This document shows positions 18,296 to 23,140 of a stretch of DNA of 64,000 bases, piece by piece. The number at the start of each line of letters is the position of its first letter. Position 1 is the stretch's first letter. This DNA is from an uncultured archaeon. Lineage in GTDB: Archaea; Thermoplasmatota; Thermoplasmata; Thermoplasmatales; Thermoplasmataceae. Both the position numbers and the translations under genes were made by a program. The notes under the pieces were generated by a model. It was not told the DNA's origin. It was given only the letters and a program-made list of their open reading frames with translations, and did no database searches. The stretch lies in contig CP009479.1 in NCBI GenBank assembly GCA_000965745.1, positions 192,001 to 256,000 on the forward strand. Direction: 5' to 3'.

Positions 18296-18916
18296 TCACC
18301 TTTGCTTTCCGAGATCTTCCTCGTGTGCAATATTCCTTGATACAGCCATGGCAAGAAGCACCGTACCCACAAGAGCCATGCCAATGCCTGTCCCTCCTAC
18401 GTATCTGGAAGAGTGTTCCACGAGTGTGATGGTGTTGCTTGCCACAATCTGGACATGGACAGGGGAGCCTGAGTTTGCCGTCAAGTTAATTGCGTACTGC
18501 TGGCCCTGAATATTCGGCGTAGGCCCGATACTTATCGTAGAATCGTTGGAGGCGTTGCCCTGGCCCCTGTAGATGTACTGGATCATGTTCAGCAGCTTGT
18601 AGTGCACGTTGTTGTATACGAAAAGCCTGTAGTGCACAGACGACTGCGGCTGTAATTCAAAAGTCACGTTTTCAGTCACGTTGTAGGGCTGGCTTATTAC
18701 AATGGAGGATATGCTCCCGTTTCTCAAAGTTTCGTTAAACCTGCTTACATTTGTTGTTTTCAAGAAATCAGTATAGTTGTAGGATACCTTGATAAGCGAC
18801 AGGCCCAACACTATCAGTACCATGGAAATGACAAAAACCCTGTTTTTCAGAAGCCTCGCCAGAAAAATCCTGGGAGGCGTCATGTGTTTCCTCTTACGTA
18901 TTCTGGTCTTAGGCAA
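18296..18916 (-). CDS. Two-TM membrane protein with glycosylated extracellular loop
   Basis: TTG start, TM near each terminus, NxS/T sequons; paralog of 18995-19615. Confidence 0.75.
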   Translation of the reverse strand: MPKTRIRKRKHMTPPRIFLARLLKNRVFVISMVLIVLGLSLIKVSYNYTDFLKTTNVSRFNETLRNGSISSIVISQPYNVTENVTFELQPQSSVHYRLFVYNNVHYKLLNMIQYIYRGQGNASNDSTISIGPTPNIQGQQYAINLTANSGSPVHVQIVASNTITLVEHSSRYVGGTGIGMALVGTVLLAMAVSRNIAHEEDLGKQR

Positions 18917-18994: not shown

Positions 18995-19615
18995 TCATTG
19001 ACGACCGGACATCTCCTCTTCAGATCCGATCCTCCTGGAAATCGCATATGCCAGAAGGACTATACCGGATACTGTCAGGCCTATCCCGGTACCCCCGATG
19101 TACCTTGAAGAATCCTTGGTCACGGTGATGTTATAGGCTATGGAAAGCTCAACAAGGGATGAAGAATTGCTGCTTGATGTGAGGTTGAGCATGTACTCTT
19201 GCCCCTGAAGGTTCGGTGTAGGACTGATGCTTATCATGGTGCCGTTTGAGGCGTTGCCCTGCCCTACAGTGTGATAGGTTGAAACTTCATTGGTCCGGGA
19301 CTGAAGGTGATCGTACTGCAAAAGAGTGTAATGCACGGAACTCTCAGACATTCTATCGAAGTTGACGTTTTCAGTAACATTATATGGCTGGGTGAAGCTC
19401 ACGCTTGAGACACTGTCATTCCTGACTGTCGTGTTGAAGGTGTGCACGTTCTTGTTAACAATAACGTCCTTGTAATTGTACGAGAGATTTATCAGGCCAA
19501 CTCCCACAACCATCATTACAATGGAGGCTATGAAAACCCTGTTCTTCAGGACCCGCAAGAGAACTTCCTTAGGCCGGTCCCTGTGTTCCAGCAGCTTGAT
19601 TCTAGTCCTGGGCAA
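18995..19615 (-). CDS. Two-TM membrane protein, tandem paralog
   Basis: Shares LKNRVF, QPYNVTENV, SSVHY, GQGNASN, PTPNxQGQ and SSRYxGGTGIG with 18296-18916. Confidence 0.75.
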   Translation of the reverse strand: MPRTRIKLLEHRDRPKEVLLRVLKNRVFIASIVMMVVGVGLINLSYNYKDVIVNKNVHTFNTTVRNDSVSSVSFTQPYNVTENVNFDRMSESSVHYTLLQYDHLQSRTNEVSTYHTVGQGNASNGTMISISPTPNLQGQEYMLNLTSSSNSSSLVELSIAYNITVTKDSSRYIGGTGIGLTVSGIVLLAYAISRRIGSEEEMSGRQ

Positions 19616-19784: not shown

Positions 19785-20600
19785 GTGGAATTCAGGATTG
19801 GATGCTCAGGATGGAGCTACAAGGGATGGAACGGGGCATTCTACCCGAAGGGAACGAAGCCGTCGGACTATCTGGAACTTTATTCAAGAGCCTTCGACAC
19901 GGTAGAGATAGATTCGACCTTCTATGCAATCCCAGATTCCGGTACAGTCAGGAGTTGGAGAGAGCGGACCCCGGATAATTTTCTCTTCACGGCCAAAGTT
20001 CCTAAGATTGTAACTCACGAAAGGAAACTGGAGAATACCGAAGTACACATGGGATATTTCCTTGAATCCATAGGTAAACTTGGCGACAAGCTCGGCATGA
20101 TCCTTGTCCAGTTCCCCCATGGGTTCACCTATGACTCAGGTGCTGAAAAGTTCAGGAAGTTTCTGGAAAGGCTCCCGACGGATGCCAGGTTTGCAGTGGA
20201 GTTCAGGCATGATTCGTGGTTCAACGATGCTGCATATGCCTGTTTGAAGGAAAACAACGTGACACTTGCATGGTCTGAAATGCCAATGACAGGTTCCACC
20301 AACATAACAACATCATCCTCTGCATACGTCAGGCTGGTAGGGGACAGGTCAATAAAAGAGGAGGATTTTGGAACAGTCCGGAGGGACAGGACAGATGTTA
20401 TCAACAGGTGGGCCAGGGAGCTTGAAAACAAGAAGAATGTGATAGACCACACCTTTGTGTTTTCGAACAACCACTTCCAGGGTTTCGGGCCTGCCACTGT
20501 TAACTTTTTCAGGCAGGCAGTGGGCGTTGAGCCTGTTAATTGGGAAATCAGGATGAAGAATACTTCCACTGGCGAGCAGAAGTCCCTTTTCGACTGGTAG
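19785..20600 (+). CDS. DUF72 (YecE-like) family protein
   Basis: IGCSGWSY, VEIDSTFY, KVPKIVTH, LVQFP, AVEFRH, YVRL, FSNNH. Confidence 0.92.
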   Translation: MEFRIGCSGWSYKGWNGAFYPKGTKPSDYLELYSRAFDTVEIDSTFYAIPDSGTVRSWRERTPDNFLFTAKVPKIVTHERKLENTEVHMGYFLESIGKLGDKLGMILVQFPHGFTYDSGAEKFRKFLERLPTDARFAVEFRHDSWFNDAAYACLKENNVTLAWSEMPMTGSTNITTSSSAYVRLVGDRSIKEEDFGTVRRDRTDVINRWARELENKKNVIDHTFVFSNNHFQGFGPATVNFFRQAVGVEPVNWEIRMKNTSTGEQKSLFDW

Positions 20601-20819
20601 GGAGTGTCCTGCCTGCCACACCATTGATAAGCGGAACAGGCCGGAGCGTTCATCATTCAAATGCGTTTCCCGCGGATTCGAGGGAGAAGCGGATTTCGTC
20701 GCTTCCCTCAACATCAGGAACAGGGCTGCCGCTAGCCAGCCTATTGTAGCGGGTGCTATTTTTGATCAGTCTTTGATCCCCCAGCTGCAAGCCCCATCCG
20801 TCAGGGTGGGGTAGTTGAC
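20599..20819 (+). mobile_element. tnpB: IS200/IS605-family (IS1341-like) right-end remnant: TnpB C-terminal fragment plus omega-RNA scaffold
   Basis: Frame 20599-20814 reads RECPACHTIDKRNRPERSSFKCVSRGFEGEADFVASLNIRNRA...QAPSVRVG* (Zn finger + RuvC-III AD..AS.NI); subterminal hairpin GCCCCATCC-GTCA-GGGTGGGGT at 20791-20812 followed by AGTTGAC. Confidence 0.88.
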
Positions 20820-20820
20820 A

Positions 20821-21268
20821 TCAACGCCGATCTTCCTTTCCCTGATCTCCTTCTGATCGGGCTTCCTGATAGGACAACCTTCCTGTCTCTGAGGAGGAGT
20901 TCAGATACACCATATTGGCTGTATTCGCTGTACTTGGAATGGTTGCTGTTGACGGGAATGTACTCGTATTCGTGGGGTTGGAACGTGATCCTGATGAAAC
21001 CGTCCTGAAGCTTGACGAGTTCACTGTCAAGAGGATTGACATGATGCTTCGTATGATCGTATGTGGAGTCAAACCACTGTTTAATCTCCCTTCTTAGGTC
21101 TATGGGTAACGGCATCTTTCCGTTGGTTCTTCTCAGTTCTTCCGCCTTCAGAACGCCGTAATGAACGGCATCACGCATGTCATTCAGGTATGTCACTATA
21201 TGATCAGACGGCTCATAGTACCACCATATGGTGCGTTTCTCACCCGATGAAGACCATGCGTGGCTCAG
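20821..21268 (-). pseudogene. tnpB: IS607-associated tnpB, N-terminal part, internally deleted and frameshifted, cut at RuvC-I
   Basis: Directly downstream of IS607 tnpA; after a frameshift the end reads PDQKEIRERKIGVD(VN), a RuvC-I motif, then runs into the opposite element's end. Confidence 0.72.
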
Positions 21269-21845
21269 GATTTGACAGCCTCCGGTATTCTCCTGGTTTT
21301 GTGTGAGCGGAGACCATACAGGCGTGCAGAAAAGGACGTGATGATCGATATGAGATCACGTGATAGCTCTTCATGTGATGTCAGAATCTCATCGCCATCG
21401 GTTACAATCTCGACGCTGTGCGTTTAACAGATTTTCTCAACAAGATCGTATCCGAATCGTGCAAGACGATCCTTATGGATGATACATATCCTTGAAGCCC
21501 TGTCCGCTTCTATTTCATTCAGCAATCTGACGAACCCCTTGGGATCAAACCTCATGCCGCTTCTGATATCTGAAATAATATCAGGATCCGGCGATATTGA
21601 TTTCAGGCGTTGAACCTGCCTGGCAAGGTCTTCTTTCTGGTCCTGTAATGATACCCGTGCATAGATTATGACCATCTCTCCTTCGCTATGCCTAGCATCC
21701 TGTTGATCTCGCTTTCCGGGACTCTCCTGAAGTTGTTCTGCAGCCTCACGCACTTTATCTTCATCTCTCTGTCCCATTTTCTAAGGGTAGGGGGGTCGAT
21801 CTGCAATATATCACAGACATCTCTGAGGGTGTAGAGTTTCTCCGT
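21265..21845 (-). pseudogene. tnpA: IS607-family serine recombinase TnpA pseudogene
   Basis: MerR-like HTH (EKLYTLRDVCDILQIDPPTLRKWDRE) with ACG in place of the start codon; frameshift; IIYARVS..QKEDLARQ; DRLARFG; in-frame TAA at 21424-21426; then EELSRDLISIITSFSARLYGLRSHK. Confidence 0.92.
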
Positions 21846-21849
21846 AACT

Positions 21850-21869
21850 TATAACAATATATCACAATA
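21850..21869. repeat. Tandem 10-nt motifs at the IS607 left end (putative TnpA-binding repeats)
   Basis: TATAACAATA followed by TATCACAATA, immediately upstream of tnpA. Confidence 0.5.
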
Positions 21870-21912
21870 ATAATTAATGTCTTTTTCCAGCTGTTAGGCC
21901 CCACAACAACTG

Positions 21913-22548
21913 TCAGATCTTTTCCTTGAGACCGCCGTATATATTTTGTCCATGTCCTGACAGAAGAACATCCGCCCCGGACTCCCTGACCACCCTGGCA
22001 AATTCTGTGCGGGCTTTACCATATGGCTTGTGGGGCGGATCGTGTGGGAACCATTCGGGGGCAACCACCAGGTTTCCCGCCGAATCCCCTATGGCAATAT
22101 CCCCGACTATGAGCTCTTCCTCCGGTGTGAGGAATGCGTACTCATCAATACAGGGAACCCCAGATGTCCTTTCAGATGCCACCGTTATCCTGAATGGCTT
22201 CAGCCCGTAGATTTTATCCATGCCGTATCTCTCGAATTCCCTGATTTCTTTCTGCTCCAGTATAGCTTCCGGGTTGACGGAGATTGACTCATGCTGATCC
22301 GGGATGAGCAGCCTTGCGCCGGTTTTCTTCGAGATGTAACGGGCTCCCCGTGTGTGGTCCAGCGTGGTCAGCATTATTGCCTCCAGCTTACCAAGCCTGC
22401 TGATGGAATCAATCAGGCCGGGAACCAATGGCGGATCGATGGCGATGCACTTACTTTCATCGAGAATGAGGTGGCCGTACATGATCCAGTCGCCTTCTGG
22501 GTCTGGCGTCCCCCATCTCAGAATTCTCCTGGTTACTGGGATGAACAT
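21913..22548 (-). CDS. Metallo-beta-lactamase-fold protein with degenerate metal motif
   Basis: IAIDPP, LTTLDHTRG, LIVGD, LLSGHG; start at MFIPVT. Confidence 0.75.
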   Translation of the reverse strand: MFIPVTRRILRWGTPDPEGDWIMYGHLILDESKCIAIDPPLVPGLIDSISRLGKLEAIMLTTLDHTRGARYISKKTGARLLIPDQHESISVNPEAILEQKEIREFERYGMDKIYGLKPFRITVASERTSGVPCIDEYAFLTPEEELIVGDIAIGDSAGNLVVAPEWFPHDPPHKPYGKARTEFARVVRESGADVLLSGHGQNIYGGLKEKI

Positions 22549-23140
22549 GATACATACACCCGGGAGGTGGATATTATGTTTGACCCGCCATATGGCTGCA
22601 TTCAGGCAAGGAAGCGAAAGTGGCTGTGGACGAAGCCTTATACGCCGTGATTCCTGAGCCAACTGAAAACCAGAGTTGAGGTGCAGAATGTGTGCCGCTT
22701 CATTCTAATCATACATTAAGGGCTTGTCCTGCGGCGTGCGTGAATGGCCTCACTATTGTCCCGTTCTACCTGCATTGAACCGGTTCCTGCATTTGTGCTT
22801 GCAGAGTGCAATAGTCTCCAGTCTGCAAAGAATCCGGATATTGCATCACTTTTGAGAAAATGGTGTCCTGGCCCAACAGTTTCAGGGGAGGTATAATGGG
22901 GGAGTTCACTGCCTGTGTGCGGCCCTCCTCCTATCCGTACATCCTGCTTCATCAATGCCCCCTTACGCCTTCTTGATGATCTTGTCCGTGGATGAACTTC
23001 ACGAAATTTGAGGAAGTAGCCTCGATTTCGAGTGGGGAAAGAACTTGCCGTCGCAGGGTAAATCTCGAGAGCAGCAGTGTCCTGATGAAGCCCGTTCAGA
23101 GAAAAACTATTATAGATTCTGATATTAACCGACTTGCACA

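Follow-up and report, generated by a model that had tools for sequence, protein, structure and literature searches.

The locus described here is most probably neutral debris of a nested transposon insertion that does nothing now. It lies in a window of 64,000 nt, corresponding to C1:192001-256000 of a single-contig archaeal genome (2.23 Mb, 46% GC), and it was present in soil metagenomes from 2016-2023. The preliminary description had presented it as an orphan TnpB omega-RNA whose guide would direct one transposon against another. Judged from its sequence, the remnant may be transcribed, yet it was without a found target or sign of selection. Set against the reading as debris are the conserved helices of the predicted RNA, which can all form, the 96% identity of the scaffold to that of the cognate element, and the presence of an intact cognate TnpB gene, which together leave a working trans-acting RNP conceivable.

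The IS1341-type remnant, its junctions and the broken IS607

The remnant occupies 221 nt (20599-20819, plus strand) and was identified from a family alignment as the 3' end of an IS1341-type (tnpB-only) IS200/IS605 element; it aligned without gaps to C1:2092083-2091863 with 198 of 221 positions identical (89.6%). Its translation is that of a TnpB C terminus (RECPAC..CVSR..ADFVASLNI..) with a stop codon at 20812-20814, and it gave a weak match to Pfam PF07282 (E 2.5e-5). The RuvC-III Asp is kept, and the zinc finger carries a Cys-to-Arg change at 20671. The right end (20788-20819, plus strand) comprises the DNA guide CAAG (20788-20791), a hairpin with a GTCA loop (20791-20812), and the cleavage motif TGAC (20816-20819), the terminus reading GTTGAC (20814-20819). 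This hairpin and the TTGAC end were common to about 30 copies with unrelated flanks, and no target duplication was present at the right end of the remnant, as expected of IS200/IS605. The remnant is a single copy in the genome from which 82% of the element and the left end are gone; a left end preceded by a TAM was absent from the window, though it is present in the cognate copy. The initial statement that only the last ~220 nt of an IS605/IS1341-type element are left was thus borne out by the translation, the hairpin, and the 221-nt match to a full-length copy. A right-end-like motif at C1:876852 was rejected; it is located inside an ordinary gene and has no hairpin.

The left junction falls on the stop codon of an intact 271-aa DUF72 gene (19785-20600, plus strand; Pfam PF01904, E 1.8e-57). 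Two nucleotides of microhomology, AG at 20599-20600 on the plus strand, belong both to the DUF72 stop TAG (20598-20600) and to the IS1341-type element, at nt 995-996 of its 1215. The stop is native, as a same-genus genome (G002) has an identical QKSLFDW* C terminus, and the co-oriented fusion that had been described is therefore real. DNA contigs from independent studies spanned both junctions with 0-1 differences, X3 record 7 covering 20033-20751 and thereby the left junction, and X8 record 25 covering 20773-21583 (run X10 was left out of the contig comparison because its coverage was too low). Because both junctions are bridged by independent DNA runs, an assembly artefact is ruled out. The IS607 transposase was considered as the maker of the deletion and was dropped, its crossover dinucleotide being CC on the plus strand and the junction AG. 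In G002 the site is empty: the metallo-beta-lactamase (MBL)-fold gene, convergent with DUF72 and found at 21913-22662 (minus strand) in the window, ends 30 nt beyond the DUF72 stop with no insertion. At position 20280, the window has A and three DNA runs have G; the change, Met to Val in DUF72, may reflect an assembly error or strain variation. Upstream of DUF72, the minus strand encodes tandem paralogous 206-aa membrane proteins (18296-18916 and 18995-19615) with hydrophobic segments at their N and C termini.

To its right, the remnant adjoins an IS607 element in which both genes are pseudogenes. We confirmed that the reverse complement of the flank at 20820-20839 spells the (R)KIGVD codons of the IS607 tnpB; the would-be guide (20820-20835, plus strand) is the insertion flank, antisense to the RuvC-I codons KIGVD. 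Alignment to an intact relative (L077, itself recognized by NF040570) indicated that the tnpB pseudogene (20820-21268, minus strand) retains its 5' part only, cut after the RuvC-I Asp codon, with a 90-nt deletion at 21033/21032 and a 4-nt frameshift deletion at 20871/20870. The tnpA pseudogene for the serine transposase (21266-21845, minus strand; NF033518, partial, and PF00239) has its start changed from ATG to ACG, a 1-nt deletion near 21689, and a stop at 21426-21424. The IS607 left end (21846-21901, minus strand; boundary approximate), at a GG/CC dinucleotide, was placed by alignment to L077 and to a second relic (C1:1936203-1936281). Membership in IS607 follows from the order tnpA then tnpB, the GG-dinucleotide ends, and 74-80% identity to intact relatives, the right ends of which finish in GAACGG. 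The second relic of the same family extends over C1:1935900-1936290 (minus strand), where the left end and the start of tnpA run directly into the final ~290 nt of tnpB and the right end is intact; this gene-less relic may keep an IS607-type omega-RNA.

At the position of the junction, most IS607 relatives read D-V-N, with TT-N-AC on the plus strand right before the guide-equivalent bases; the sequences are TTTAC, TTAAC or, in two copies with GTG AAC, TTCAC. Going by these codons, the uninterrupted IS607 probably had TTCAC ahead of the site, and a TAM would accordingly have been available 5' of the target, a point that the preliminary description had asked to be checked. The junction GTTGAC could also reflect a GTC AAC codon pair that microhomology joined to the right end, a route no less ordinary than insertion at TTCAC.

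We propose that the locus was assembled in three steps. First, as the empty site in G002 shows, IS607 entered the gap that separates the convergent DUF72 and MBL-fold genes. An IS1341-type element would then have inserted in antisense, just 3' of TTCAC in the D-V-N codons of the RuvC-I region of the IS607 tnpB. Lastly, a microhomology deletion of about 1.7 kb (the junction is observed, and the size is estimated from relatives) would have brought nt 995 of the element up against the DUF72 stop, with the loss of 994 nt from the IS1341-type element, about 710 nt from IS607 (its 3' half), and a few host nucleotides. Insertion of IS200/IS605 elements takes place immediately 3' of the TAM, creates no duplication, and makes the 3' flank the guide (PMC10055086, PMC10691335); given insertion at its own TAM and use of the 3' flank, the guide had to be IS607 antisense. 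While intact, the inserted element would for a time have targeted uninterrupted copies of that IS607, as the known mechanism implies and as plasmid-borne IS605 has demonstrated (10.1101/2025.02.20.638934). The left breakpoint requires no RNA explanation, since a deletion into DUF72 would damage the gene. The right limit of the deletion requires none either, because other relics of both families in the genome (a 79-nt copy and an internally deleted IS607) break at other places, and the scaffold survived because it is located at the right end of the element. Without a left end there is no excision, and the donor joint, which is the normal target (the empty donor site), therefore cannot form.

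The cognate TnpB and the predicted omega-RNA scaffold

BLAST with the remnant located a full-length cognate, 90% identical, at C1:2093077-2091863 (L047; 1215 nt, tnpB only). Its 375-aa ORF (C1:2092995-2091871) keeps three RuvC motifs (GVDLG, LEEL, and ADFVAS) and four zinc-finger Cys residues, passes NF040570 (169.8 bits versus a cut-off of 100), and aligns with solved Cas12f/TnpB chains. The intact cognate TnpB that had been sought is therefore present, and the same genome encodes what is by these features a predicted nuclease compatible with the remnant scaffold, its catalytic triad intact. The right flank of L047 lies inside a methyltransferase-like open frame.

The IS1341-type family was present in 24 of 169 genomes of the order. 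Of 23 family copies, about 16 carried TTCAC as the five bases before the left end, the minor variants being ATCAC, TTCAT, and GTCAC; TTCAC stands directly before the left end of the cognate, and the family right end reads T[TC]GAC. In the guide pairing rule of IS608 and ISDra2, the left DNA guide GAAG calls TC-C and the right guide CAAG calls TG-C, and the TTCAC flank and T[TC]GAC end of the family agree with it. Because the left-flank motif is the TAM for insertion and TnpB cleavage alike (PMC10055086), we infer that the TAM of the family is TTCAC.

Several other elements were noted. A third family copy in the genome (C1:1280618-1281006) is internally deleted, with both ends kept and only the last 79 nt present; it is without the 5' pseudoknot strand, and its left flank is TTCTC, not TTCAC. 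A family copy in genome G123 (L065:1192-1473) has an IS110 transposase coding sequence in sense as its right flank (PF02371, E 8e-25) and is a second nested insertion of the family; the right-flank screen covered about 28 family copies with open frames judged by eye, and its two nested cases are a minimum, not a rate. At window position 20789, a loose end in X3 joins TTCAC and the start of the left end straight to the right-end hairpin, and this contig has the form of a PATE-like mini-element of the same family from the same habitat. Two IS605 elements of another family, with Y1 tnpA and tnpB (L001, C1:1393272-1394860, and L002, C1:1576664-1578250), hold the only Y1 transposases of the genome. 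Their left flank is TTTAA and their end TGTCAC, and the hairpin at their right end is very similar to the one at the left end of the IS1341-type element.

Alignment and covariation placed the predicted omega-RNA scaffold core at 20723-20819 (plus strand). It is composed of a stem (20723-20728/20737-20742), a long stem (20744-20753/20780-20790), the right-end hairpin, and a pseudoknot that pairs 20731-20736 with 20814-20819. In the alignment of 19 family copies, 94-99% of cells were paired in these four helices, and compensatory changes were found in three of them (pseudoknot, long stem, and right-end hairpin); kinship among the 19 copies inflates the pairing counts, and slid controls were far lower. 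All four helices can still form in the remnant, which carries the complete predicted scaffold, and the omega-RNA layout has the guide contiguous with the right end from 20820 onward. Compared with shuffles, the 5' 117 nt of the remnant folded no better (z -0.36), and the 3' part gave z -2.6. The covarying core thus amounts to ~100 nt, not 220, and the first 117 nt are unstructured coding sequence. The remnant had been called about one omega-RNA long: its 221 nt fit the average of 218 nt for archaeal sotRNAs, flank included (PMC4615843), yet the covarying core is confined to about 20723-20819. The length is compatible with an omega-RNA and does not show selection for one. Rfam returned no relevant family for the remnant, with one chance match to SNORD62 (E 0.67), and a sigma-70 promoter scan of the locus was set aside because the host is an archaeon.

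The pseudoknot of the remnant is weakened. A private C-to-T change at 20733 turns a C-G pair found in all 18 other rows into U-G, and the pseudoknot duplex, at -0.5 kcal/mol, was less stable than any other in the comparison (cognate, -2.6; family consensus, -5.7; duplex and hairpin energies are nearest-neighbor estimates without protein). The cognate pseudoknot has one C-A mismatch relative to the family consensus. Nucleotides 3-6 of the guide are complementary to the terminal GUUG of the scaffold, and the predicted 4-bp hairpin competes with the pseudoknot; an equally stable hairpin is expected at about 11% of the TTCAC sites of the genome, and the cognate's own guide is likewise predicted to be paired. 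In these models, the weakened pseudoknot and competing hairpin lean against a maintained RNA, without showing that the RNA is dead.

Comparison of decay gave a similar picture. Five inactivating lesions were counted over about 1080 nt of the IS607, equivalent to about one expected per 221 nt, and the remnant has one clear coding lesion and one weakened pseudoknot pair, so that its decay appears to match that of the dead IS607. Substitutions of the remnant at otherwise conserved columns are found at 20671 and 20673 (zinc-finger Cys to Arg) and at 20733; private changes at conserved columns numbered 2 of 59 in coding sequence versus 1 of 70 in the scaffold (Fisher p 0.59, with few mutations and low power). 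The last 111 nt differ from the cognate at 4 positions (96% identity). Because most remnant-cognate differences are synonymous or found in other active copies, they predate inactivation. The preliminary description had named stems decaying at the rate of the dead coding sequence as evidence against its reading, and, within the low power of this comparison, the scaffold was indeed not better preserved than its dead surroundings.

It is conceivable, though we judge it improbable, that the locus makes an expressed but aimless orphan omega-RNA, in which DUF72 read-through would be processed and loaded by the cognate TnpB with no present target; its effect would at most be competition for the TnpB protein. 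The DUF72 gene is a possible source of read-through transcription across the remnant, being co-oriented, with no intergenic gap and no terminator-like site on the plus strand at the junction, and the intact cognate gene would supply the protein. TnpB is known to trim the 5' end of longer transcripts (PMC10278001), and a probable sotRNA has been described from a 120-bp truncated IS1341 pseudogene of Halobacterium (PMC4615843). Against such an RNA speak its pseudoknot, the weakest of those compared, and the predicted pairing of guide nt 3-6 with GUUG.

Search for a target of the would-be guide

Elsewhere in its own genome, the IS607 RuvC-I region does not occur, and the sole other relic of that IS607 family is without it. 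The best of 5572 TTCAC sites differed from the 12-nt seed at 3 positions, and relaxing the TAM brought in only the locus itself. Four identical transposase copies (C1:543467, 699173, 1287157, and 1654697), which we take from their translations, by eye, to be ISL3-like, have IIGVDD codons that match the first 9 guide nucleotides (16/20 overall), and they were rejected as targets because their flank is TTGTC, not a TAM. Three copies named IS630-like on the same by-eye basis have an 11-nt seed run and were likewise rejected, the flank GCAGA being no TAM.

Among 13 distinct IS607 relatives, none paired TTCAC with a usable seed. Those with TTCAC had at least 3 seed mismatches, those with TTTAC or TTAAC had 2 or 3, and the relative with a single seed mismatch has TTGGT at the TAM position. 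Double mismatches within positions 1-12 abolish cleavage by ISDra2 TnpB (PMC10097598), and an archaeal TnpB accepts single mismatches when the TAM is its cognate one (PMC11043419). The seed spans four wobble positions, and synonymous drift alone therefore removes the target. An order-wide search for TAM plus guide with 1 mismatch allowed returned the locus itself and two non-IS607 matches, and a control pattern gave one match.

In metagenome contigs, the guide 22-mer had 0 matches and the TAM plus 15 guide nucleotides had 4, none of them IS607: one is RecA-like, two are the end of one unrelated ORF, and in the fourth no long ORF crosses the site. This number is about the level expected from chance and codon bias. 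The TAM plus 13 nt gave 9 matches in viral contigs, none of them IS607; most belong to a single large family of phage genes that read the site in frame. No IS607 relative was found in the viral contigs. IS607 relatives at about 80-85% identity co-occur in the same soil metagenomes, where the contigs showed them over stretches other than 20820-20835; the TAM-plus-guide negatives in metagenome and viral contigs come from exact searches. The proposal that the guide would hit intact IS607 copies was thus not supported, as no match to TAM and seed emerged from the own genome, the 13 relatives, or the metagenome and viral contigs.

These results bear directly on a selected transposon-versus-transposon guide, in which the orphan RNA would be kept by the host or by the IS1341 family and the cognate TnpB would cut incoming or resident intact IS607. 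We regard this as very unlikely, and no better odds attach to its sharpest form, an immobile, host-transcribed omega-RNA loaded in trans as a single-spacer, CRISPR-like memory of the interrupted IS607 variant. An uninterrupted copy of the same variant would probably have both TAM and target, related IS607 elements are found in the same metagenomes, and TnpB-bearing IS605 elements cut IS-free copies of their host mobile element in a plasmid gene drive (10.1101/2025.02.20.638934). However, the genome holds no target copy, the relatives diverge at seed wobble positions or at the TAM, the exact TAM-plus-guide matches in metagenome and viral contigs contain no IS607, and the scaffold showed no excess conservation in the low-powered decay comparison. 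Nor was the locus found in the three same-genus genomes searched, G002 having the empty site and G001 and G003 being 95% and 88% complete.

That the remnant is instead a mobile unit (PATE/MITE), or was copied from RNA, and settled between DUF72 and IS607 in that form can scarcely be credited: left-end/right-end fused mini-elements do occur in the same habitat (X3, 20789) and BLAST matches in many other genomes begin at the same position, near query position 900, but this shared start is an artefact of where the window's truncated copy, and with it the query, begins, the other copies running on upstream as tnpB, while the remnant has neither a left-end hairpin nor a TAM on its 5' side, and the missing 3' half of IS607 calls for a deletion.

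Meaning and relation to known systems

As neutral debris, the locus is of little weight as it stands, being one more orphan omega-RNA-bearing IS end. What is gained is a TAM (TTCAC), an end motif (TTGAC), and a pseudoknotted scaffold of ~100 nt, all for a family of compact 375-aa TnpB proteins in Thermoplasmata-related archaea. The two cases, with IS607 and IS110, further suggest that nested insertion routinely yields TnpB guides matching other transposons. If the selected guide were real, the locus would be a natural example of a fixed, host-expressed anti-mobile-element guide arising from transposon debris, a transition that has often been suggested to lie between TnpB and Cas12 immunity.

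Precedents exist: a probable sotRNA has been described for truncated tnpB pseudogenes (PMC4615843), and both stand-alone omega-RNAs (PMC10691335) and PATEs (PMC10055086) are on record. From its features, the remnant appears to be neither a mobilised stand-alone omega-RNA, as it has no left end, nor a domesticated guide, as no target and no cross-species conservation were found. Like the guides of TldR and domesticated TnpB, its guide matches another gene; the guides of those systems are conserved across genomes with targets elsewhere (PMC10705468), whereas that of the remnant is a contiguous flank at one locus in one species with no separate target found. The nesting resembles the plasmid IS605 gene drive, or anti-self defence, in which an IS605 inside a mobile element is auto-reprogrammed against IS-free copies (10.1101/2025.02.20.638934). 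In that system the element is intact and the targets are identical multi-copy plasmids; here, in contrast, the IS607 is dead and single-copy, the nuclease gene is gone, and no identical target was found.

The remnant shares with stand-alone omega-RNAs and PATEs a scaffold without a nuclease gene and a compatible nuclease elsewhere in the genome (PMC10691335; PMC10055086). Unlike PATE-like elements, which are mobilised and have both ends, it is a one-ended, immobile deletion product. Its closest counterparts are IS1341-type elements with an omega-RNA or sotRNA (ISDra2 reRNA; Halobacterium, PMC4615843), in which the 3' end of tnpB overlaps the scaffold, a pseudoknot is terminal, and the 3' flank is the guide. 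It differs from intact members in having lost the left end and 82% of the element and in its fusion to a host stop codon, with TTCAC as TAM and TTGAC as end. Truncated pseudogenes in which the RNA region is retained were also described in that work, and the GUCA tetraloop of the right-end hairpin of the remnant is a variant listed there (PMC4615843). The predicted core of ~100 nt shares its architecture with the 116-nt scaffold of ISDra2, which has a terminal pseudoknot (PMC10097598), and with the 106-nt scaffold of AmaTnpB (PMC10278001).
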